A DNA stretch of 64,000 nucleotides from Bacillota bacterium (lineage in GTDB: Bacteria > Bacillota > Clostridia > Oscillospirales > Oscillospiraceae), in assembly GCA_021770445.1 (NCBI GenBank), contig JAETQY010000012.1, positions 53,018-117,017 on the forward strand, in the 5' to 3' direction. A model generated the notes under the pieces. That model did no database searches and was not told where the DNA came from. It saw only the letters and a program-made list of their open reading frames with translations. Positions 12,751 through 60,300 of the stretch are shown here, in pieces (position 1 is the first letter of the stretch; every line of letters begins with the position of its first letter). Position numbers and translations under genes: made by a program.

Positions 12751-15063
12751 TTACATGGCCAGCAGCTCCAGCGTCTCTCCGTTGGAGACAGCCTTGAGCT
12801 GAGATACCGGCTCCTGCCAGCCCTCGATGAGCCGGACGGCGATGGCGTCCTCCAGCTCCTTCTGGATGAGACGGCGCAGGTTCCGGGCGCCGTAGGTGGC
12901 GGAGTAGGACTTTTTTACCAGGTAGTCCAGGAGGGTGTCGTCCCAGGTGAAGTTGATGTCCTTCTCCTTCAGGGTGCCCACTAGCTCCTTGAGCATGAGC
13001 ACGGCGATGCCCTTGAAGTTGTCCTCAGAGAGCTGGTTGAAGTAGACAATCTCGTCCACCCGGTTGATAAACTCGGGGCGGAGGAAGTCGTTGAGGGCTT
13101 TGATGGCCCGGTCCTTGCCCTGCTCGTTGGCGGTGCGGCCGAAGCCCACAGAGCCCACCTTGGTGCTGCTGCCGGCGTTGGTGGTCATGACGATGACGGT
13201 GTTTTCAAAGTTCACCACTCGGCCGTGGGCGTCGGTAATGCGGCCGTCGTCCAGCACCTGGAGGAGGATGTTCAGCACGTCAGGGTGGGCCTTCTCGATC
13301 TCATCGAAGAGGACCACGGAGTAGGGCTTGCGGCGAATCTTCTCGGTGAGCTGGCCCGCCTCATCATAGCCCACATAACCCGGAGGGGAGCCGATGATCC
13401 GGGAGACGGCGTGCTTCTCCATAAACTCGGACATATCCAGCCGGATGAGGGACTCGGGGGTGTCGAACAGGTCGGCAGCCAGCTGCTTGACCAGCTCGGT
13501 CTTGCCCACGCCGGTGGAGCCCACGAAGATAAAGGACACCGGCTTGCGCTTGGGGGAGATGCCCACCCGTCCCCGGCGGATGGCGGCGGAGACGGCTTTC
13601 ACCGCCTCGTCCTGGCCGATGACATGCTCCTCCAGCCGCTCCTCCAGCTTGGCCAGCCGCTGGAACTCCTGCTCCTGGATGCGGCTGGCGGGGATGTTGG
13701 TCCACAGCTCGATGACGTTGGCCAGGTGCTCCTGGGTGAGGGCGGGGTGGGCCTCGTTCTGCAGGCCCGTCTTCTCCTCCTCCAGCCGCAGCTCCATGCT
13801 CTTGATGTCGGCCAGCCGCTTGTAGGCGTCTTCGGTGGCGGCGGCCATCATGACCTCCTTCTCCTTGGCCAGGTCGGCCAGCTCCTTGTCCACCGCGTTG
13901 AGGCGGGCCAGGGCCTTGTTGTGGAGGTTCACGTTGGAGCAGGCCTCGTCGATGAGGTCGATGGCCTTGTCGGGCAGGTAGCGGTCGGTGATGTACCGCT
14001 CGCTCATGGTGACGGCCAGCCGGCACATGGCGGGGGAGACCTCCACCTGGTGGAAGCTCTCATAGTAGGGGGCGATACCCTCGATCACTTTCACGCTGTC
14101 CTCGATGGAGGGCTCCTCCACGATGACGGGCTGGAACCGCCGCTCCAGGGCGGTGTCCTTCTCAATGTGCTTGCGGTACTCGTTGAGGGTGGTGGCTCCG
14201 ATGACCTGGAGCTCCCCCCGGGACAGGGCGGGCTTGAGGATGTTGGCGGCGTTCATGGAGCCCTCGGCGTCGCCGGCGCCCACGATGGTGTGTACCTCGT
14301 CAATGACCAGGATGATGTTGCCCAGCTTGCGGATCTCCTCGATGAGGCCTTTCATCCGGCTCTCGAACTGGCCCCGGAACTGGGTGCCCGCCACCAGGGC
14401 GGTGAGGTCCAGCAGGTAGACCTCCTTCTCCAGCAGCTTGTAGGGCACGTCCTTGTTGGCGATGCGCTGGGCCAGCCCCTCGGCAATGGCCGTCTTGCCC
14501 ACGCCGGGCTCGCCGATGAGACAGGGATTGTTCTTCTGCCGGCGATTGAGGATCTGTACCACCCGCTCCAGCTCCCGCTCCCGGCCAATGAGCTTATCCA
14601 GCTTACCCTCCTGGGCTCGCTGGGTCAGGGAGATACAGTAGCTGTCCAGGAATTTCCGCTTGGTGGGCTTGGACTGACCTTTTTCGCTCCGGGGAGGCTG
14701 GGTAGAGCCCTCGCCAGAGGAGGGCTTCTCCGAAGAGGAGGAGCCGCCGCCAAAGAGCTGATTGAGGAAGGGGAAGGTGGCGGTGCGGCCGTCGTCCTCC
14801 TCGTCGTCCTCGTCCTTGGTGGGGGACATCATCCCCTCCATGCCCTCTGCGCCGCCGAAGGCGGACATCATCTCGGTGGTGAGGGTGTCCAGGTCCTCGT
14901 CGCTGATCCCCATCTTCTTCATCATGTCGTCGATGGGCTTGATACCCAGCTCCCGGGCGCACTTGAGGCACAGACCCTCGTTCTTGGAGGTGCCGCCCTC
15001 TAACTTCGTAATAAAGATGACCGCCACATTTTTGCCGCAGCGGCTGCACATGGTAGGCTGCAT
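12751..15063 (-). CDS. clpC: Clp protease ATP-binding subunit (ClpC/ClpE type, N-terminal Zn finger)
   Basis: Two AAA+ modules ([16 protein letters not shown]), IDLIDEA, RLDMSEF; N-terminal CxxC..CxxC rather than Clp-N repeats, so ClpE-like. Confidence 0.85.
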
Positions 15064-20436: not shown

Positions 20437-21300
20437 TCAATCTTTTGTCCACCGCCCTGTAGCCCCGCAGGGGAGGGCCAGGCCGGACTGGGTGACGGGC
20501 AGGCCTAGCTCGTCGGAGACGGTATGCCCGCCGAACTTTTTGGAGATCAAGGTCTCCAGAATGTAGGTGACCACGCTGGGGGCCAGGCCGGTGGTGTAGG
20601 AGTTGAGGATAACAAATAGGGGGTCGTCGGACAGCACGCCGCTCACCAGCTCCACAAAGGGGTAGAGGTTTTCCTCCAGCTTCCACACCTCGCCGGTGGG
20701 GCCCCGGCCGTAGGAGGGGGGGTCCATGATGATGGCGTCGTACCTCCGCCCCCGGCGGATCTCCCGCTCCACGAACTTGGCGCAGTCGTCCACGATCCAG
20801 CGGATGGGGGCCTCCTCCAGCCCGGAGCTCTTGGCGTTCTCCCGGGCCCACTGGACCATCCCCCGGGCGGCGTCCACATGGCACACGCTGGCCCCGGCAG
20901 CGGCGCAGGCCACTGTGGCCCCGCCGGTGTAGGCGAAGAGGTTCAATACGCTCACCGGCCGACCTGCACTGCGAATCTGCTTCTGGGCGAAGTCCCAGTT
21001 GGCCGCCTGCTCGGGGAAGAGGCCGGTGTGCTTGAAGTTCATGGGCTTGATGTTGAAGGTGAGGGCCCCGTAGGACACCGTCCACCGTTCGGGCATGGAT
21101 TTGTTGACCCACTGGCCGCCCCCGGTGGAGGAGCGGGCGTACCGTCCAGCGTTTTTCTTCCAGCCCGGGTGGGAGCGGGGGGTGTTCCAGATGGCCTGGG
21201 GGTCGGGCCGGACCAGGAGCTGGTCCCCCCAGCGTTCCAGTTTCTCTCCACGGCCGCAGTCGATAAGCTCATAGTCGGTCCAATTGTCGGACAGCCACAT
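20437..21300 (-). CDS. Class I SAM-dependent methyltransferase (RlmI/RlmK-like)
   Basis: [23 protein letters not shown]. Confidence 0.85.
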
Positions 21301-21487
21301 AACCGAAATACCCCCAATATATTCTAAAACCAGAATAGTATATCATTTCCAGGGCGTTCCGTCAATAAATACAAGGGATTTTACGGGAATGACAGAGAAG
21401 TGATTGTATTTTACGGCTGGCTGTGATAAAATACCTCAAAGAGCGACAGAATACCCGGCCAAACCGGCCGATTGAGAGGTGCGAAAG

Positions 21488-22225
21488 ATGGATCATCCCT
21501 TCCGTTCCGCCGCAGTGGGCGGCTTCAATAAGCAGGATGTGCTTACCTTTCTGGAGGAGCAGTCCAAACAGGCAGCCCAGGCCCAGCAGCAGCTCCAGGA
21601 ACAGCTGGAGGGGGCAAATCGTCAGATCGAGACCCTCCGCCAGGAGGGGGAGGAGCTGCGTCGCCGGCTGGAGGAGGCCCAGCGGGAGCTGGAGACCGCC
21701 CGTCAGGGCCGGGACAGCCTGAACGCCCAGCTGGAGGAGGCCGGCCGGGAGCTGGCCGCCAGCCGGGGGGAGACGGACAGGGTACGACATGAACTGGAGG
21801 AGGCCGTCCGGGACCGGGACGGGGCCCGCGCCCAGCGGGACAGGCTCCAGGCCAGGCTGGACGGCGTGCTGCCCGACGCCCAGGCCTACGTTCAGATCAA
21901 GGAGCGCACCGCCGGGGTGGAGCTGGACGCCCACCGCCGGGCCCAGACCATCCAGGAGAAGGCGGAGCGGGATGCCGAGCGGGTGCGCCGCCAGCTGGAG
22001 CAGTGGCTGGAGCGGATGGAGAAGGAGTACGACGCCATGCGGGGCGAGGTGGAGATCACCGTGTCCCACGCGGCCAGCGAGCTGGACCGGGTGCGGGCCG
22101 GGCTGAACCGGATCACCCAGCTGGTAGACGCCCAGGAGGGTGCGCTGGAGGGGATCGCCAAGGCCTACAGCGAGACTGCTGGCCCCAAGATTGAGGCCCC
22201 CATGCCCATCCCAGAGGAGGAATAA
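21488..22225 (+). CDS. Coiled-coil protein with DivIVA-like N-terminus
   Basis: FRSAAVGGFNKQDVLTFLE resembles the DivIVA/GpsB N-motif; long heptad region. Confidence 0.6.
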   Translation: MDHPFRSAAVGGFNKQDVLTFLEEQSKQAAQAQQQLQEQLEGANRQIETLRQEGEELRRRLEEAQRELETARQGRDSLNAQLEEAGRELAASRGETDRVRHELEEAVRDRDGARAQRDRLQARLDGVLPDAQAYVQIKERTAGVELDAHRRAQTIQEKAERDAERVRRQLEQWLERMEKEYDAMRGEVEITVSHAASELDRVRAGLNRITQLVDAQEGALEGIAKAYSETAGPKIEAPMPIPEEE

Positions 22226-22254
22226 TTGACAAGACAGCGCCTGTCCTCTATACT
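22226..22254 (+). promoter_or_regulatory. Sigma-A promoter of the small peptide gene, overlapped by a 15-bp inverted repeat (22234-22269)
   Basis: TTGACA-17-TATACT; acagcgcctgtcctc-TATACT-gaggacaggcgctgt. Confidence 0.8.
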
Positions 22255-22309
22255 GAGGACAGGCGCTGTTGCAAATGGCGGTTAGCCACTCCCTTACAGA
22301 GAGGGGGTG

Positions 22310-22411
22310 ATGCGGTTGGATGACGGGCGCTGGACGAAAGTCCTGCGTTTCGTGGTGTGTGTGATTATTACAGCTCTGCTGTTGATACTTACAGCCCCAA
22401 ACGCGTGTTAG
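22310..22411 (+). CDS. 33-aa single-TM peptide, putative type I toxin (MRLDDGRWTKVLRFVVCVIITALLLILTAPNAC)
   Basis: Translated by hand (below ORF-track cutoff); strong SD gagggggtg; hydrophobic helix; opposed by a convergent promoter. Confidence 0.75.
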   Translation: MRLDDGRWTKVLRFVVCVIITALLLILTAPNAC

Positions 22412-22489
22412 CCGCCCGGCTCGCCCCGGACGGCTAACAGATTTCTGTTAAAAGCGACGGGCTAACCGCTATGCAGCAGCGCCTTTTAC
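22400..22489 (-). ncRNA. Putative cis-antisense antitoxin RNA
   Basis: Starts after TTGACA-16-TATAAT (22523-22496), no ORF, ends at hairpin 22407-22438 overlapping the toxin stop codon; ends approximate. Confidence 0.65.
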
Positions 22490-22495
22490 ATGTTT

Positions 22496-22523
22496 ATTAT
22501 AGCATCTTTGTACGGGTTGTCAA
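22496..22523 (-). promoter_or_regulatory. Consensus sigma-A promoter for antisense RNA
   Basis: Minus strand TTGACA-16-TATAAT. Confidence 0.8.
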
Positions 22524-22638
22524 GAGATTTGCGGTAATTACTTGAAACAAGTTTTTTTACAACTTGATTCAAGTTAAAAACAAGATAATCGACATGGAAT
22601 TGGGATACCATACATCCAGATAAAATTTTGGATGGTGG

Positions 22639-22821
22639 TTGACCTTGAAACGAGATAAGCATTTGGGTATTACGATCAGCGGTGAACATCATGGAAAGCT
22701 GGTCTATATTGCGGAGTATGAGGGCCGCTCCATGAGCGGGCAGATCCTATACCTGATCCAGAAGTGCATCCGGGAATTCGAGAAGGAGCACGGCCCCATC
22801 CCAGAGGACGAGCTGAAATGA
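22639..22821 (+). CDS. Small ribbon-helix-helix (Arc-like) DNA-binding protein
   Basis: Strand HLGITI, helix HHGKLVYIAEYEG, RSMSGQILYLIQ (RS..GQI pattern of Arc/RHH); start may be TTG 22645. Confidence 0.65.
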   Translation: MTLKRDKHLGITISGEHHGKLVYIAEYEGRSMSGQILYLIQKCIREFEKEHGPIPEDELK

Positions 22822-23516
22822 GGGTGCGGGAAAAGGTGCTGGATCTGCTCTTTCCGCCCAAGTGCCCCTACTGCCAGCAGATTCTGGAGGACCCCCGGGC
22901 AACTGTGTGCCCGGACTGCCAGCCCAGGCTGCCCTGGCTGGAGGGGAAGGCGGGGGAGCGGAGGATCGACTTTGCTGACGGCTGCTTTTCCCCTCTGGCC
23001 TACCGGGATGCGGTGCCCGGGGCGGTCCACCGGTACAAGTTCAGCCGGGTGCGGGCCTTGGGGAAGCCCCTGGCTGCCCTGATGGCCCAGTGTCTCAGTG
23101 ACCGGCTGCCAGAGGGAGCGGACCTCATCACCTGGGCGCCCCTGTCGAAGAAGCGGCTGCGGGAGCGGGGCTTTGACCAGGCGGAGCTGTTGGCCCGGGA
23201 GGTGGGGCGGCTGCTGTCCATTCCGGCGGCGCCTGCCCTGGAAAAGACGAGAAACACCAGCCCCCAGTCGGAGCTGGAGGAAGAGAGCGCCCGCCGGGCC
23301 AACGCCCGGGGGGCCTATGCCCTGCTGCCCGGGGCGGACCTGACGGGCAGGCGGGTGGTGCTGGTGGACGACGTGGTCACCTCGGGCTCCACCCTCAGCG
23401 AGTGCGCCGCCTTGCTGCGCCAGGGGGGTGCGGCGCAGGTGTACTGTCTCACCCTGGCCCGGGCCAGAGAAGACGGGGAAGAAAAAAAGACGAAAATTGT
23501 AGGAAAAAACGGTTGA
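22818..23516 (+). CDS. comF: ComF-family protein (double Zn ribbon + phosphoribosyltransferase)
   Basis: LFPPKCPYC..CPDC, RGFDQAELLA, LVDDVVTSGSTL. Confidence 0.9.
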   Translation: MRVREKVLDLLFPPKCPYCQQILEDPRATVCPDCQPRLPWLEGKAGERRIDFADGCFSPLAYRDAVPGAVHRYKFSRVRALGKPLAALMAQCLSDRLPEGADLITWAPLSKKRLRERGFDQAELLAREVGRLLSIPAAPALEKTRNTSPQSELEEESARRANARGAYALLPGADLTGRRVVLVDDVVTSGSTLSECAALLRQGGAAQVYCLTLARAREDGEEKKTKIVGKNG

Positions 23517-23603
23517 AAAGCGGCCACGCTCAGGTTATAATAAAAAATGGCATCTAAGAGCCGCCCTATCAGGGCGGCCACAAAATAATGAATAAAATAT
23601 AAG

Positions 23604-24647
23604 GTGGAACAAATCATGGGTTTCTTCAGTAAAGATATCGGCATCGACCTGGGCACCGCCTCGGTCCTGGTATATATCCGCAACAAAGGCGTGGTCCTGC
23701 GGGAGCCCTCCGTGGTGGCCATGGACAAGAACACCGGCAAGCTGCTCAAGGTGGGCACCGAGGCCCAGGCCATGCTGGGCCGCACCCCCGGCAACATCGT
23801 GGCCATGCGCCCCCTGCGGGAGGGCGTCATCTCCGACTACGACATGACCGAGCGGATGCTGAAGGAGTTTATGAAGAAGGTCACCTCCTTCTCCCTGTTC
23901 AAGCCCCGCCTGCTGATCTGCGTGCCCTCGGGCATCACTGAGGTGGAGGAGCGCGCGGTGGTGGACGCCGGCATCCAGGCGGGCGCCCGCCGGGCCTACC
24001 TCATCGAGGAGCCGGTGGCCGCCGCCATCGGCGCGGGCATCGACATCACCAAGCCCGACGGCCACATGGTGGTGGACATCGGCGGCGGCACCGCCGACAT
24101 CGCCGTCATCTCCCTGGGCGGGGTAGTGGAGTCCGCCTCCATCAAGGTGGCGGGCGACAAGTTTGACGAGGCTGTGGTGAAGTATATCCGCCGCAAGCAC
24201 AACGTCCTCATCGGCGACCGCACCGCCGAGGAGCTGAAGATGAGCATCGGCTGCGTCTTCCCCCGGCCGGAGGAGGTCTCCATGGAGATCAAGGGCCGGT
24301 GCCTGATGACCGGCCTGCCCCGGGTGTTTAACGTCACCTCCAGCGAGATGATTGAGGCCTTTGAGGAGACCTCCGGCTCCATCCTGGAGGCTATCCACGG
24401 CGTGCTGGAGCGCACGCCCCCCGAGCTGGTGGCCGATATCTCCACCAACGGTATTGTCATGACAGGCGGCGGCTCCCTGCTGTGGGGCTTCGATAAGCTG
24501 GTCCAGTCCCACACAGGCATCGAGACCCACGTGGCTGACGACGCCATCTCCTGCGTGGCCTACGGCACCGGCAAGAGCCTGGACAGCCTGGACCAGATGC
24601 AGGACGGCACCATGAACCTGTCCCGCCGCAAGCAGATGAATTATTAA
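23604..24647 (+). CDS. mreB: Rod shape-determining actin homologue MreB/Mbl
   Basis: IGIDLGTA, IEEPVAAAIGAG, VDIGGGT, GGGSLL. Confidence 0.95.
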   Translation: MEQIMGFFSKDIGIDLGTASVLVYIRNKGVVLREPSVVAMDKNTGKLLKVGTEAQAMLGRTPGNIVAMRPLREGVISDYDMTERMLKEFMKKVTSFSLFKPRLLICVPSGITEVEERAVVDAGIQAGARRAYLIEEPVAAAIGAGIDITKPDGHMVVDIGGGTADIAVISLGGVVESASIKVAGDKFDEAVVKYIRRKHNVLIGDRTAEELKMSIGCVFPRPEEVSMEIKGRCLMTGLPRVFNVTSSEMIEAFEETSGSILEAIHGVLERTPPELVADISTNGIVMTGGGSLLWGFDKLVQSHTGIETHVADDAISCVAYGTGKSLDSLDQMQDGTMNLSRRKQMNY

Positions 24648-33350: not shown

Positions 33351-35204
33351 TTATTTGATGACGATGACCCGGACCCGGCCTCCGTCGGCCTCCGCCTTGT
33401 CGTACCAGGCGGTGAGGGAGGCCTGGCTCTCCTCCGCCCTGGCCAGGCTGGACAGGAAATACTGGCCGCCGCGCTGCTCATAGACGGCCACATTGTCGGA
33501 CAGGGTGTACCTCTGGCTGCCTGCCACGAACTGGCTGCCCACGAGCTGCCCGGCCTTGGCCGGGGTGAGGGGATAGAGCCGGTCGGGGTTGGCCGGGTCG
33601 CCCAGGATGCGGACAGGCCCGCCAGTAGCCGGGAAGCGGGTGGTGCCGGAGAAGGCATAGCCCACACCGCCCACGTCGTACTGGTAGGTGCAGAACCGGC
33701 TCATCCCCTCGCCCGTCTCCTCAAAACGGGTGATGATGCCGTACTGGTAAGCGTCGCCGGTGACGTCGTTGAGGATTAGGGTCTCAATCTCCCCCTGGGG
33801 ATTGAGGGAGTAGTATTTGATCTCGCCGCGGTCCAGGCTCAGGCCGGCCAGGCGGCTGGGGTAGATGACCGCGCCCCGGCCATCGCTCACATCCAGGATC
33901 TCCGCCCCCTGGGCAAAGGTGTACTTGTCCAGCCTGGTACCCTCCTTGTTCACCTTGCCGGACAGGGAGGCATTGCCCAGGCCCCGGAGAGTGACCTGGC
34001 CGCCCTGAGCGGCCACGGTGGCCCGGACTAGAGAGCCCGTTTTATAGCTGCCCTGTACCTGGTACTGGTAGGTCTGGCCGTCGGTGGCCAGCAGGGTGAC
34101 GGCCTGGGCGGTGTAGGTGCCGCCGGAGCCGTCAGGGTAGGAGGACTTCTCCACCGCTGTTACCACGCCCACCTTCTCTCCGGCGCTGGCGGACACGTCA
34201 GCCACGGAGGCCACGCCGCCGCTTCGTCCCAGCAGAAGGGTGACGGTGTCCCCCAGGTGGTACTGGCCCAGGTCGGACAGGGCGTAGGCGGCGGAAGAGG
34301 TTTCGATGGGATAGGTGCGGCCCGCCACCGTCACCGAGGTGGGCTCCGCCCGGTCAGGGGCGATGGCCTGGATAGGTCCGGTGGCCTTTTTGGCGTAGGC
34401 CCAGACGGTGCCCATGGAGGCGTTCCAGTAGACGATGTCGTAGTTCTGGATAGCGGAGGCAGTCACCAGGCTGCCGTTTCGGTAGACCTTGCTGGGGGAG
34501 AAGGGGAGGGAGGACCGCCAGCCGCTCTGGGCGACGATGGGTCCCTCCATCTGGCCGTTGATGAGGGAGACCAGGTCCGGCTTGCCCGAGGCGTCCAGGC
34601 TGTGGCCCAGCTGCTGGATGTAGGGGGCCCCCTCCTTGGTTTTGGCGGAGAGCAGGTTATAGAACAGAAACACCGCGTCCTGCCGGGTGAGGGGGGAGGA
34701 GGCGTTCACAGCCGTCACCCCCCGGTCCAGCTTCAGGCTGCGGTACATGGCCAGCTGGCCGGTGGGGTAGGAGCCGGAGAAGTCGCCGGGGCCGTAGCCC
34801 AGCAGGGACAGGACCATGGAGGAAGCCTCAGCCAGGCTGATCTCCCGGCCGGGACGGAAGGTGCCGTCACTGAAGGCGGTGACCAGCCCCCGGCTCACTG
34901 CCGCCTCCACATAGCCGGAGGCCCAGTGGCTCCGGGGCACGTCGGGGTAGGGGGAGGTAGCCGCCTGACCCACCCCGTCGCCAACCGGGGTGGCCTTCAC
35001 AGCCATGGTGACAAACTCGGCCCGGGTCACCTTCTGGGACAGCTTCAGGTCACCGCTGCCGTCCCCGTTCACAATGCCCAGGGCGGTCACCGCCTGGACG
35101 GCCTCGTCCAGGTCGGCGGCGTTTCCCGCCGCCGAGGCGGGCAGAGCCAGCGCAAGGGTGAGGCAGACCGCCAGTGTGGCGGCAATGGTGCGTTTTATCT
35201 TCAT
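33351..35204 (-). CDS. S-layer homology domain secreted protein
   Basis: Signal peptide; SLH motifs KVTRAEF, YPDVPRSHWASGY, GTFRPG, LTRQDA. Confidence 0.85.
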   Translation of the reverse strand: MKIKRTIAATLAVCLTLALALPASAAGNAADLDEAVQAVTALGIVNGDGSGDLKLSQKVTRAEFVTMAVKATPVGDGVGQAATSPYPDVPRSHWASGYVEAAVSRGLVTAFSDGTFRPGREISLAEASSMVLSLLGYGPGDFSGSYPTGQLAMYRSLKLDRGVTAVNASSPLTRQDAVFLFYNLLSAKTKEGAPYIQQLGHSLDASGKPDLVSLINGQMEGPIVAQSGWRSSLPFSPSKVYRNGSLVTASAIQNYDIVYWNASMGTVWAYAKKATGPIQAIAPDRAEPTSVTVAGRTYPIETSSAAYALSDLGQYHLGDTVTLLLGRSGGVASVADVSASAGEKVGVVTAVEKSSYPDGSGGTYTAQAVTLLATDGQTYQYQVQGSYKTGSLVRATVAAQGGQVTLRGLGNASLSGKVNKEGTRLDKYTFAQGAEILDVSDGRGAVIYPSRLAGLSLDRGEIKYYSLNPQGEIETLILNDVTGDAYQYGIITRFEETGEGMSRFCTYQYDVGGVGYAFSGTTRFPATGGPVRILGDPANPDRLYPLTPAKAGQLVGSQFVAGSQRYTLSDNVAVYEQRGGQYFLSSLARAEESQASLTAWYDKAEADGGRVRVIVIK

Positions 35205-35222
35205 ATGGCACATTCCTTTCCT

Positions 35223-52880: not shown

Positions 52881-54224
52881 ATGAAACAGCTCACTTTAGT
52901 TGGACTCTGCCTTGTTGTTTCCCTATCCATGTCCGCCCCTGCCTTCGCTGCAGAACAACCAGCAGAAATTGAAGCAGCGGGGCAGTATCTGCATGATCAG
53001 GGTATCTATCTTGGGGATAGCTCCGGCAATCTTATGTTGGATAAAGGGCTGACCCGTGCCGAGATGGCCGCTGTCCTTACCCGGCTTCATGGGGAGGGTG
53101 AGGTCAACCCCGATCACTACAGTTGGGCCTGCTACTTTACTGACGTACCTGACTGGGCCAAATCCTATGTCGGCTACTGTGTCGCCAATCTGCTGGTATC
53201 CGGTTATGACGCATCCCGCTATGGCCCCAATGATATGGTTACCCCAGCCATGGCCAGTACGGTGGTACTCCGATGTTGCGGCTATGGAGGCGGCGAAGGC
53301 AGCGCATGGACCTACGGAACCGCCAGTCAGTATGCCGCCAGCCTGGGACTGATTAGCCAATCCACCGCTCAGGCGCCTATCATCACCCGCGGTGAGATGG
53401 CTGTGCTGATCAGTCGGGCCTGGGAACAGGAGGAAGGGGTGCCGGGTAAGCCAGCACTTCAGCCCGAGGGCAACGGTACGATGCAGGAATACACAATCAG
53501 TGTAACCCACTGGAGCAGAGAAGATTTTTCCCAGGACGCCAACCCGGACGTGTTCACCGCTACCTATGACCGGGCGCTCTACAACACCATCCGTCAGACA
53601 CTGGTGGACGGCACCAGCGTCACCGCCCCCGCCTATACAATGGTGGGAAATAACCGATACAGTGATGTCAAGAATCTACTGACCCGGATGGAAGGCGTCA
53701 TGCGCTATGAGCACTATGTCCCGGAGAACTTTTCCGACTACTGGCAATACCTGGATTATTTTGCTGTGTCCGCCACTATGCCGGAGAACTATCAAGCGCC
53801 CCTTGACTTTATCCAGCCCGTTATCGCGAAAGCGGTGAAAATGGATACGGACAGCGAAAAGGTGGAGTACCTGAACGACTACCTATGTACCTTGCTGACC
53901 TATGAGAACAGTAAAACAGCGGGTATCACCGACACCTTTGCCCAGCATACCGGGGAGCTTCAAGCGGCCTGCGGCTCCTACGCCAGAGCGTTCAAGTTTC
54001 TGTGCGGAGCGGCCGACATCCCCTGTTTTACCATCAGCACCAGCAGCCACACCTGGAACATGGTCTATGTGGACGGCCAGTGGCTCCATGTGGACGTTTC
54101 CCTGAACGACCTGACAAGCAGCCATTCCATGCTGCTTCGGGAGACCTACCCCAACCACCCAGACCGAGCGCCGGAGCAGACGGCTTTCCTAAAAGAGCTG
54201 CTTGTTCCTAACAGTACAAAGTAA
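52881..54224 (+). CDS. SLH-domain protein with transglutaminase-like C-terminal domain
   Basis: LTRAEMA, FTDVPDWAKSY, ITRGEMA; ACGSYARAF, HTWNMV, WLHVDV (Cys-His-Asp triad). Confidence 0.85.
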   Translation: MKQLTLVGLCLVVSLSMSAPAFAAEQPAEIEAAGQYLHDQGIYLGDSSGNLMLDKGLTRAEMAAVLTRLHGEGEVNPDHYSWACYFTDVPDWAKSYVGYCVANLLVSGYDASRYGPNDMVTPAMASTVVLRCCGYGGGEGSAWTYGTASQYAASLGLISQSTAQAPIITRGEMAVLISRAWEQEEGVPGKPALQPEGNGTMQEYTISVTHWSREDFSQDANPDVFTATYDRALYNTIRQTLVDGTSVTAPAYTMVGNNRYSDVKNLLTRMEGVMRYEHYVPENFSDYWQYLDYFAVSATMPENYQAPLDFIQPVIAKAVKMDTDSEKVEYLNDYLCTLLTYENSKTAGITDTFAQHTGELQAACGSYARAFKFLCGAADIPCFTISTSSHTWNMVYVDGQWLHVDVSLNDLTSSHSMLLRETYPNHPDRAPEQTAFLKELLVPNSTK

Positions 54225-57300: not shown

Positions 57301-60300
57301 CAACCGCGACCACACCATCTATTTTGAGAACCACAAGAAACCCACCCTGACCGTGAACAAGGTGGACAGCATCACCGGCAGTCCCATCAAGGGGGCCAAG
57401 TTTGAGGTTTGGTACGGCTCCAATAACACGACCACCGGGGAGCTGAACAGCCTGGGTACCTTTTACTCTGACGCTAATGGCCAGTTCTTTGTTGACCTGC
57501 TGCGGGACGGCTGGTACAAGGTGACGGAGCTGGAACCTGCCGCAGGGTACACCATCAAGCAACCCGCCACCCAGGAATTCTATATCAAGGGCGGTGAGAG
57601 CAAGGTCGTCACCTTTGAGAACGTACCCAAGAACGCGATTATCGTTGAAAAGTACGACAGCGTGACCGGCGCAGCCCTGCCCGGCTGTACGTTCCAGTTG
57701 CGCTACCTGGGTGGCACTTCCGGCACGGGCGGCACCGTCATCGGCACCAAAACAACCGGGAGTAATGGCACCGCCATGTGGACGGGGCTGAATCCCGGCG
57801 CTTATGTGCTGGAGGAGGTAGACGCTGCGGATGGGTACAACATCATCCAGTCCTCCGAGACTATCATGCTGGCCAACAGCGGTGAACAGAGCGTTGTCAC
57901 TGTCAGATTTACCAATGCCCCGGACGGAATTTTGCTCATTCGCAAAGTCTGTGCAACCAACCCCAGTGTAACTCTCCAAAACGCTGAGTTCAAGGTGCTG
58001 TATGCGGACGGCACCGTTGTGGGCGACAGCAACGGCATTTTCAGGACGGACGAGAACGGCGAAATCCGTATCACCGGCCTGACCCCCGGCAAGAGCGTGG
58101 TGGTAACGGAAACACGTGCCCCCGCTGGCTTTATCCTAGACACGCAGAGCCAGACCGTCCAAATTAAGGAGGGGCGCACCGTGTCCCTCACGTTCAAGAA
58201 CCAGCCGAAAGGGGCCATCATCATCCAGAAGCGGGACAGCCAGACCAATGAAGCGCTGCCCGGTGCGGAGTTCAGAATCACGACCGCCGCAGGGTGCGAA
58301 GTGGGCCTGGACGGTACCATTGGATCGTCTACTTTGACCCAGAATGGCATTTTCACCACCGATGCCCAGGGCGAAATCAAGATCACCAACCTTGCCCCCG
58401 GCGCTTATGTGATCAACGAGATCAAGGCCCCGGACGGCGGGTATGTCATCGACACGCCCTCCACCAATGTGGTCATCGGGCAGGGCGGAGACACGCAGAC
58501 TGTCATCATCAAAAATACCCGCAAGGGCGGCCTGATCATTGAGAAATACGACAGCGTGACCAAGCAGCCCCTCTCCGGCGCACAGTTTAAGGTGATGACC
58601 GCCAACGGGGAACTGACCCCGGACAACGAGGGCCTCACCTCCTCCAACGGCCTCTACACCACCGATATCAATGGGCAGATCGTCCTGTCCAAACTGCTCC
58701 CCGGCACCTATGTTGTGTCTGAGGAAAAAGCGCCGGACAATTACCGCAAGGACCCCACCCCCCAGACCGTGGTGGTCAACGCCGGGGACACCCAGACCAT
58801 CCGGTTTTATGATGACCCGCTCTGCACTCTGACGATCCTGAAGCGGGATGCTGTGACCAAGAAGCCCCTGAAGGGTGCTGAGTTTATGGTACGGGACAGC
58901 TCCGGTCATGTGATCGGCCCCAACAACGGCCTCTACACCACCGGCACGGATGGTACCGTCACCGTCACCGGGCTGGCCCCCAATTCCACCGTGGTCGTCT
59001 CTGAGAAAAAAGCCCCCAAGGGCTACATCCTCGATGAAACGCCCAAGAGCATCGTGGTACGCACCGGCGTGGCCAACAGCCTGATTTTTGACGATGAACC
59101 CGGCACTACGCTGATCATTCGCAAGTTTATCGAGGGAACTGAGAACGAGCCGCTGTCCGGTGTGGCCTTTAAGGTTGTGGACGGCAATGGCGGCGCTATC
59201 GGTCCTGATGATGGCGTGTATTACACTGACAAAGCGGGAGAGATCGTGCTGGAGGGCATCGAACCCGGCACCACCGTGAAGGTACGGGAGATCAAGACGG
59301 TCGATGGCTTCGTGCTGGATGGGACGCCCCAGGACATTCTCATCAAGGGCGGCGAAGTGCAGCAGCTCACGTTTTGGAACAAGCGGGCCGGGACCCTGGT
59401 CATCCAAAAGAAAGACAGGTGGCCAAGGAGGTCAAGCCCGCCCCCGGCTACGTCATCGACCAGAGTACCCAGACCCAGACCGTCACGGTGAATCCTCTGG
59501 ACACGCAGACCCTGACCTTCCTGAATGAACCCCTGTGCAGCCTGACGCTGACCAAGCTGGACTCCGTCACCGGCAAGCCCATCCCCGGCACCGAGTTCAC
59601 GGTAAAGGACGGTAACGGCACAGTGCTGGGCCGCTATACCACCGGCAAAGATGGGACTGTCGTTGTGACGGGCCTCGTTCCTGGCAGCACTGTGGTCGTG
59701 GTTGAGACGAAAGTCCCCAGCGGCTACGTTCTCAACAGTACACCTCAGACCATCATCGTCAAAAACGGGTCAAATACTGTGAGCAGCGGGACCGTAGACG
59801 GCACCACCAATCCTGGTGGCGGCACCAACGGCGGCAACGATCTCACTTTTGAGAATGATCCCAAGACCCGGCTGATCATCGAAAAGTACATTACCGGCAC
59901 CACCACGCCTCTGAAGGGGGTGGCCTTCCTGGTCACTGAGTCCAACGGTAAAGTGCTGGGGCCCAACAACGGCGAGTATGTGACGGACGAAAATGGCCGG
60001 ATCGTAATCGAGGGCCTGGAACCAGGCGTGACCATCATCGCAAAGGAGATCCGGGGCTTGGATGGCTACGTTTTGGATTCCACCCCCAAGTCCATCCAGA
60101 TTAAGGTGGGGGACGCCCAGACGCTTAAATTCTACAACGCCCCTGTGGGTGGTTTGGAGCTGATTAAAGTCTCCGAGAGCAACAAGAGTCAGCGTATCCC
60201 CAACACTACTTTTGAGCTCCGCCGCATGGACGGCGGGCTGGTGGATACGGTGACCACCGATAAGAACGGCCGGGTCCATGTCTCCCTGGATGCCGGGGAC

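Follow-up and report, generated by a model that had tools for sequence, protein, structure and literature searches.

Anatomy of the locus

The locus described here occupies approximately 300 bases between cell-division genes in a rodent-gut bacterium of the Oscillospiraceae, and was analysed within a 64,000-nucleotide stretch of its genome (assembly GCA_021770445.1, contig JAETQY010000012.1, positions 53,018 to 117,017; hereafter the window, whose numbering is used for the locus throughout). An earlier reading of this DNA, made from its letters and open reading frames (ORFs) and here called the sequence-only reading, had proposed an unannotated type I toxin-antitoxin locus of the core chromosome, with a peptide that may belong to a new family. 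Both of the promoters that it named are present and they face each other. The sense promoter (22226-22254, + strand; TTGACA at 22226-22231, a 17-bp spacer and TATACT at 22249-22254) matches the consensus at 11 of 12 positions, and the convergent antisense promoter (22523-22496, - strand; TTGACA at 22523-22518, a 16-bp spacer and TATAAT at 22501-22496, with a TG extension) matches at all 12. When 3 kb were scored against the consensus, with shuffled sequence as a control, five promoter-like sites were found compared with 0.9 ± 0.8 in the shuffles.

Transcription from the sense promoter is predicted to start at approximately 22261 and to render a putative toxin mRNA of approximately 230 nt (22261-22490, + strand), as judged from the fold and from metatranscriptome coverage. 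Its first 27 nt pair with its last 27 nt in a closing helix, the 5' arm of which (22261-22287) comprises segments P1 (22261-22273) and P2 (22277-22287), and the 3' arm of which (22460-22484) comprises the P2 partner (22460-22470) and the P1 partner (22472-22484), followed by TTTTAC. The segments between which long-range pairing had been noticed, gcggttagcc (22278-22287) and ggctaaccgc (22460-22469), are indeed exact reverse complements, and the full pairing covers approximately 27 bp as opposed to those 10 nt. The peptide ORF (22316-22411, + strand; stop TAG at 22409-22411) encodes 31 amino acids from TTG 22316 or 33 amino acids from ATG 22310, and the longer frame (22310-22411) translates to MRLDDGRWTKVLRFVVCVIITALLLILTAPNAC, a peptide with a basic N-terminus, one transmembrane segment and a C-terminal Ala-Cys. 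Immediately upstream lies a hairpin (22287-22309, + strand) in which CACTCCCTT (22287-22295) is paired with GAGGGGGTG (22301-22309), and the Cys and stop codons are enclosed by a GC-rich hairpin, P4 (22406-22439, + strand), whose arms at 22406-22419 and 22426-22439 were recovered as inverted repeats, in agreement with the hairpin that had been seen over the stop codon. Read on the minus strand, P4 is a candidate terminator for an antisense RNA, the putative antitoxin, which is predicted to span 22398-22489 (- strand); its 5' end is placed from the -10 box, and its 3' end may lie at approximately 22398 or as far away as a palindrome near 22228.

RNA structure and covariation

The 230-nt RNA folds with a free energy of -120.5 kcal/mol (z = -8.3), and none of 200 shuffled sequences was as stable. 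In this minimum-energy fold CACUCCCUU (22287-22295) lies opposite the Shine-Dalgarno sequence GAGGGGGUG (22301-22309), as expected from the proposal that an upstream segment sequesters it. The probability that the Shine-Dalgarno sequence is unpaired was 0.05 in the window's copy and averaged 0.25 across 40 related units folded singly.

Related units were retrieved by a scan for the 17-nt core of the stop hairpin in which each species was represented by one genome. It returned more than 119 loci, of which those that also carry the second half of the hairpin belong to Oscillospiraceae and Acutalibacter; approximately 100 related units were collected from these groups. Eighty units with less than 90% mutual identity were aligned, and 44 base pairs were specified and counted directly. 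Standard pairing was found in 93.7% of the cells, compared with 30-46% when the 3' partner was slid by one to three columns. Changes on both sides were seen in 26 of the 44 pairs, and two-sided changes amounted to 202 cells against 68 ± 10 in shuffles, none of 500 of which scored as high. Compensatory switches counted on a tree that was built without the paired columns gave 7-13 independent Watson-Crick to Watson-Crick switches per pair for P1, 7-8 for P2 and 5 for P4. The 5'-3' pairing, for which the sequence-only reading required conservation in homologues, is thus conserved and covaries across 80 diverged relatives. P4 is paired in 99.8% of the cells; where the stop codon has changed from TAG to TGA the opposite arm carries a compensating change, and the same applies to TAA in a scaffold from faeces (see below). 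P2 is rich in G-U pairs, which become A-C mismatches on the opposite strand, so this helix belongs to the plus-strand RNA only.

A further helix suggested by RNAalifold, P3, which would join the start codon to the end of the ORF (GC 43, UA 32), showed only two events on the tree and was set aside as unproven. Separately, the 3' arm of P4 (GCUAAC) can in most units pair with a nearby downstream segment resembling GUUAGC (22431-22455 in the window; columns 346-385 of the family alignment), the longest such stem averaging 5.9 compared with 4.2 ± 0.1 in shuffles. This stem covaries in units with GUCAAC variants and is weak in the window's copy; it may represent a transient or alternative hairpin of either RNA.

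Evidence for a coding ORF

Given such a very strong and covarying RNA structure, the locus might be taken for a structured non-coding RNA, or for a cis-regulatory leader or terminator (acting, for example, on read-through into the downstream operon of ribbon-helix-helix (RHH) and comF genes), in which the ORF is incidental. The behaviour of the ORF speaks against this. The frame is open from the aligned start to the aligned stop in 78 of the 80 units, the Shine-Dalgarno sequence is conserved together with the start (ATG in 72, TTG in 5, GTG in 3) and the stop (TAG in 74, TGA in 6), insertions and deletions within the ORF measure 3, 6 or 9 nt, all multiples of three, and the second codon position is the least variable. 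The C-terminal Ala-Cys is invariant among 49 aligned peptides, and the Ala codon beside this Cys varies synonymously in its third position. In the Cys codon the unpaired T is constant, and where the third base is C instead of T a compensating base is found in the opposite arm of the hairpin. Because the third base of the Ala codon varies while Ala-Cys is invariant, and changes in the Cys codon are compensated, constraint acts on protein and RNA alike. For a leader, moreover, a convergent consensus promoter would be pointless, and an Rfam family that would identify such an RNA was not matched (see below). We therefore consider the non-coding explanation very improbable.

The 33-amino acid frame of the sequence-only reading is present and conserved, whereas its start needs revision: the start that is conserved in the family aligns to TTG 22316, at the usual 6-nt spacing from the Shine-Dalgarno sequence, which gives 31 amino acids, and ATG 22310, which abuts the Shine-Dalgarno sequence, is a local extra start. 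A tblastn search with the peptide returned related peptides from genomes of the window's genus, with the endings ...PKAC, ...PNAC, ...IDAC or ...IKAC. All of the features that the sequence-only reading listed were recovered at the positions it gave, and in view of these comparative data it is very unlikely that they arose by chance.

The putative antisense gene

In 85 of 93 family units a sense promoter with a score of 10 of 12 or better occupies the equivalent position; this promoter, with TATAAT, TATGAT, TATACT or TAGAAT as its -10 box, is good but more variable than the antisense promoter. The latter was tested in 91 members that had been retrieved on the 17-nt core alone, regardless of promoter, and an exact ATTATA-N15-19-TGTCAA was present at the expected distance in 76 of them. 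Neither the spacer of this promoter nor the DNA beyond its -35 box is conserved. Across the family the antisense promoter is nearer to the consensus than the sense promoter, which fits the usual excess of antitoxin over toxin, and among the ORFs of the window there is no minus-strand gene downstream that it could serve.

The antisense -10 box lies 5-12 nt past the 3' arm, and the predicted overlap of the two RNAs (22398-22489) takes in the Cys and stop codons. By construction, a transcript from the minus-strand promoter would be the complement of the clamp's 3' arm, of the spacer that varies most within the unit and of the stop hairpin. Since it complements the 3' arm, the first ~27 nt of the predicted antisense RNA are a near-copy of the 5' arm of the mRNA (AGGCGCTGCTGCATAGCGGTTAGCCC compared with AGGCGCTGTTGCAAATGGCGGTTAGCCA). 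A second terminator-like site, and hence another candidate 3' end for this RNA, is found at a perfect 15-bp palindrome (22234-22269, detected by an inverted-repeat scan) that spans the sense -10 box. The palindrome is probably the terminator of the upstream DivIVA-like gene, and its 3' half forms the 5' end of the toxin mRNA. It is confined to the syntenic orthologues and absent from paralogues elsewhere, and was accordingly ruled out as a feature of the whole family.

Distribution and genomic context

In the window's genus BLAST identified six syntenic orthologues with 86-90% identity, and many partial matches elsewhere in 13 of 37 genomes, often with several per genome and some in tandem. 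Carriers within the Oscillospiraceae include Oscillibacter, Lawsonibacter, Pseudoflavonifractor, Flavonifractor, Flintibacter, Colidextribacter and Neglectibacter as well as many metagenome-assembled genomes from mouse gut. Matches were obtained in 14 of 121 genera sampled in the window's family, a strict pattern occurred in 2 of 401 genomes of the order, and a model of the family's 3' end, built on sequence without structure, matched 2 of 250 genomes sampled across the class. The family is real, phylogenetically narrow and patchy. A search of a plasmid collection gave no family match, and carriage by phages was rejected, since the sole match in a phage collection is a faecal scaffold marked UNVERIFIED, on which the neighbours, a LysM-like gene and a transporter, do not resemble phage genes. 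That scaffold from human faeces, deposited as an unverified bacteriophage (MT836974.1, 4976-5213; L157 3001-3238), holds a family member, MGRGNALRFLLCLVIVLVVMTYIAPKAC, with a TAA stop, a compensating GTTAACC/GGTTAAC hairpin and bacterial-looking flanking ORFs.

The window's copy stands between a gene for a DivIVA-like coiled-coil protein (21479-22225) and an RHH-comF-mreB group, and the order DivIVA-like gene, module, RHH-comF-mreB is found in at least 10 loci. Paralogues elsewhere adjoin ordinary genes, among them uvrA, a merR-family regulator gene and a spoU-type methylase gene. In one close relative (G021; L021 1481-1600 compared with L151) two RHH genes come directly after the DivIVA-like gene, TTGACA box and palindrome, and the ~250-bp module is absent; the missing part extends from just past the P1 5' arm to just past the antisense -35 box, and the sense -10 box is degenerate. 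Since this relative lacks the module at the syntenic site, the module is a discrete and dispensable unit. A -35 box and a palindrome placed directly upstream of RHH genes would also suit the leader or terminator considered above, whereas the unrelated genes next to the paralogues would not.

Presence or absence at a syntenic site, multiple copies and the sporadic occurrence elsewhere in the class could also be expected of a small non-autonomous mobile element, the ends of which (promoter plus arm) would form an imperfect inverted repeat of ~60 bp, and the 3'-end model does match the 5' end of the unit on the opposite strand. Such an inverted repeat, however, follows necessarily from two facing promoters with complementary arms. 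The copies have diverged, nearly all being less than 90% identical even inside one genome, the empty site of the relative retains the left promoter and arm, which indicates an internal deletion rather than a clean excision, and neither a transposase nor a target duplication was seen. We regard a mobile element as extremely unlikely to be the explanation, and it would in any case be compatible with the module also being a toxin-antitoxin pair.

Other peptides on the same RNA scaffold

Five further loci with the same 3' arm and a facing consensus promoter are present in the window's own genome, and four of them also have the 5' arm and the stop-codon hairpin. These are C66 (~13427-13740, +), encoding the peptide MVTYSDMFTYSLVIIGIIGLFIAANKKK; C72 (~53470-53790, +), encoding MSTSEVLQLCLVIIGVCGLFIQGKKK; C22 (~59190-59520, -), encoding MSAGDIIALHLLIIAAITLGITIGRHLKK; C1 (~34935-35220, +), encoding MSINITVIFCGYTITLKVKKDNRHSAK; and C68 (~154484-154680, -), a truncated remnant of the C1 kind. 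The outer helix of C1 differs in sequence and keeps its complementarity. In another family of the same class (L170 of genome G744) the same scaffold encodes MLTYSDLFQFCLVIIGIIGLFFQAKKK. Pfam gave no match for the four scaffold peptides that were scanned (C66, C72, C1 and the related L020). In the same genome the peptides on the scaffold are of several kinds: one ending in Ala-Cys, others that combine a hydrophobic stretch with a tail of KK or KKK, and others again with a KVKxxNRH motif.

These loci suggest, tentatively, that the window's locus is one cargo of a modular RNA chassis that carries at least three unrelated peptides, and in which the antitoxin RNA mimics the 5' arm of the mRNA and takes its place by strand displacement, thereby releasing the end-to-end clamp, a regulatory logic that would be new; we would put this on the doubtful side. 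The chassis would be assembled from a sense promoter and a 5' arm (GCGCUG..GGCGGUYRGCC), hairpins at the Shine-Dalgarno sequence and at the stop codon, a 3' arm (GGGCURACCG..CAGCGCC) and a consensus promoter that faces the sense one. If it is true, the RNA scaffold rather than the toxin would be the heritable unit of this type I group, and a disulfide-dependent action of the Ala-Cys peptides would be suggested by their invariant C-terminal Cys on the extracytoplasmic side. Given the sporadic distribution of the 3'-end matches (2 of 250 genomes), the scaffold has possibly spread horizontally.

Transcription in gut metatranscriptomes

In eight RNA runs from rodent and other gut samples, contigs cover approximately 22270-22486, with nothing in 22100-22267 or 22499-22580, and one contig is 100% identical to the window over 22270-22462. 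These data, which are assembler contigs without direction in which the two strands and the exact ends are not separable, show that the unit is expressed above the neighbouring DNA in gut metatranscriptomes. For a paralogue in genome G009 the best runs cover the entire region and are hence uninformative. One contig piece of run X31 passes into Illumina adapter after 22458, which marks where a short RNA fragment ended within the predicted overlap of sense and antisense RNA. This end could be a processing site; the run carries a relative with two mismatches, and the data are strandless.

Comparison with known type I systems

No database or paper that we searched describes the family. Pfam and NCBIfam, which were searched with the window's peptide and five relatives, returned no family at E <= 1 (Fst, Ldr, Hok/Gef, TisB, Ibs, ShoB, TxpA, the holin-like toxin and others), and neither PADLOC nor PHROGs gave a match for these six peptides, so that the absence of a named family, noted from the letters alone, was upheld. 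Rfam, which holds 13 families of type I antitoxin RNAs (PMC8594479), gave no relevant match at E <= 10 on window positions 21000-24000 nor at E <= 0.1 on five related loci. By exact look-up in a collection of 15 billion proteins, nine of ten peptides were absent and the tenth was nameless, and a profile search of 1.84 billion representative proteins returned 135 clusters, all of them nameless. Literature searches on the genus names, T1TAdb and the peptide motifs found no description of the family and no link of type I systems to these genera, the motif search yielding only noise. What is new is thus the family; the general type I arrangement is known.

Type I systems are defined by a short mRNA (150-400 nt) that encodes a small (20-60 amino acids) hydrophobic protein (PMC8594479), and a predicted mRNA of ~230 nt, encoding a peptide of 31-33 amino acids with one transmembrane segment, falls within these bounds. 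A structured mRNA that would restrain translation, through pairing of the Shine-Dalgarno sequence and a long-distance helix, is likewise found. The class further comprises a non-coding antisense RNA that base-pairs with the mRNA and prevents synthesis of a protein toxic to its producer; at this locus a transcript from the conserved convergent promoter would be the candidate for such an RNA. In the Gram-positive group of TxpA/RatA, BsrG/E/H, YonT and SprG the antisense gene lies convergently on the 3' side, and its RNA covers the last part of the ORF together with the mRNA 3' end (PMC8594479). The locus resembles bsrG/SR4, bsrE/SR5, txpA/RatA and yonT/SR6 of Bacillus subtilis in its predicted antisense RNA, convergent and 3'-overlapping, and in its small hydrophobic peptide, a likeness of arrangement only. 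In bsrG, too, the Shine-Dalgarno sequence is partly or fully sequestered. Pfam, NCBIfam and Rfam reveal no sequence relationship to the Bacillus pairs. The locus also differs from them in that its predicted antisense target forms one side of an end-to-end mRNA helix of ~27 bp, that an invariant Ala-Cys takes the place of a charged tail in the peptide, and that the window's copy occupies a conserved chromosomal site and not a prophage.

In hok/Sok of plasmid R1 and aapA1/IsoA1 of Helicobacter pylori, pairing between the 5' and 3' ends of the mRNA and sequestration of the Shine-Dalgarno sequence keep the full-length mRNA inert. The 5'-3' clamp, seen here in the fold and by covariation, is the only feature that the locus shares with them. 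In those systems, which belong to Gram-negative hosts, the target of the antisense RNA is the 5' or translation-initiation region, and the mRNA becomes active once its 3' end is trimmed, whereas here the antisense RNA would cover the 3' arm, truncation of the 3' end in silico leaves the Shine-Dalgarno sequence paired, and the peptides are unrelated.

The par locus of Enterococcus faecalis (fst RNA I / RNA II) resembles the predicted arrangement in its convergent transcription, its membrane peptide of ~33 amino acids and an intramolecular structure that limits translation. The peptide of the window has no match to the Fst family and there is no match to an antitoxin RNA in Rfam, in which the locus differs from par. 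RNA I and RNA II also share a bidirectional terminator, and interact via 5' direct repeats outside the overlap (PMC8594479). The only clostridial type I systems studied experimentally are CD2517.1/RCd8, CD2907.1/RCd9 and CD0956.2/RCd10 of Clostridioides difficile (PMC6563280), which similarly consist of convergent overlapping genes whose toxins were unannotated and without homology to earlier families (PMC6563280). The C. difficile toxins have 50-53 amino acids, a hydrophobic N-terminus and a lysine-rich C-terminus and are found by CRISPR arrays or in prophages, in contrast to the 31-amino acid peptide with a basic N-terminus and Ala-Cys ending described here. Other scaffold loci of the window's genome resemble them more, as they encode a hydrophobic stretch with a Lys-rich C-terminus.

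A probable type I toxin-antitoxin module and its possible mechanism

Our data support the interpretation put forward by the sequence-only reading, which withstood all of the tests applied: ORF, promoters and pairing are conserved, the family is multi-copy and sometimes tandem, and the window's copy has a syntenic position. We consider it probable that this chromosomal locus is a type I toxin-antitoxin-like module belonging to a hitherto undescribed family. In such a module, the clamped mRNA with its buried Shine-Dalgarno sequence would be stable and poorly translated. The minus-strand promoter, the stronger of the two, would give rise to an antisense RNA fully complementary to the last ~90 nt of the mRNA, that is, to the 3' arm, the variable spacer and the stop hairpin. 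This RNA would probably nucleate either in the variable spacer or at the stop-hairpin loop, compete with and displace the 5' arm, open the end-to-end clamp and form a duplex of ~90 bp. By analogy with bsrG/SR4 and txpA/RatA, the duplex would lead to decay of the mRNA, probably by RNase III. Were the unstable antisense RNA to be lost, residual translation of the stable mRNA could produce peptide that inserts in the membrane and harms the cell.

Several observations weigh against this interpretation. The toxicity of the peptide is proposed by analogy with type I systems, and a ratio of nonsynonymous to synonymous substitution (dN/dS) of ~0.55 for the ORF indicates moderate constraint only. The metatranscriptome contigs, being unstranded, are compatible with a sense or an antisense transcript. 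The minus-strand U-tract past the hairpin is weak (CGCGUUUGGGG in the window, and 3-5 U in 12 nt across the family), and consequently the ~90-nt length predicted for the antisense RNA is uncertain. When the 3' arm is removed or the antisense target masked in silico, the Shine-Dalgarno sequence stays paired, and the model does not account for how the toxin would be switched on; a hok-like activation by 3' trimming, and activation by antisense binding, were both dropped, as neither frees this sequence in silico.

The same anatomy could also belong to a small membrane protein that is not toxic, such as a regulator or a subunit of a membrane complex, tuned by a cis-antisense RNA and forming no addiction module. 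A conserved ORF, a structured mRNA and two promoters do not prove toxicity, the invariant C-terminal Ala-Cys suggests a specific molecular interaction, and the neighbourhood of the window's copy is a conserved one of cell-division and shape genes. A protein with a fixed partner, however, is not what would be expected from diverged multiple copies, tandem arrays and scattered neighbours (UvrA, a MerR-family regulator, a SpoU methylase), nor from presence or absence between close relatives, and within one genome the same scaffold serves unrelated hydrophobic peptides. The heavy translational silencing is also typical of toxic peptides. A non-toxic membrane protein is consequently unlikely in our judgement, and the toxin-antitoxin interpretation is retained.

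Type I systems are badly under-annotated beyond a few model organisms, and the present family would supply a covariation-supported example in abundant gut commensals, with approximately 100 natural variants of both RNAs and of the peptide. It brings together a 5'-3' mRNA clamp and a 3'-overlapping antisense RNA, regulatory ideas known from separate lineages, and the 5' end of the mRNA would be a competitor of the antisense RNA. Annotation of these loci would stop them from being misread as empty intergenic DNA, and the scaffold could serve Clostridia as a compact RNA-controlled expression switch.

Neighbouring genes

The RHH gene downstream of the module (22639-22821) encodes a 60-amino acid protein with a weak match to RHH_5, and overlaps by ATGA with the probable true start of the ComF-like gene (22818-23516). 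It is part of the comF operon and lies outside the toxin-antitoxin module; in several relatives it is duplicated in tandem. Between the antisense promoter and this gene, an AT-rich segment (22540-22583, GC ~0.37), also present in L016, holds two overlapping inverted repeats (ACTTGAAACAAGTT / AACTTGATTCAAGT) and is possibly an operator for the RHH protein. Unrelated to these findings, a T-box leader (114.6 bits; L023 1032-1267, - strand) adjoins a tandem pair of family units in genome G034.

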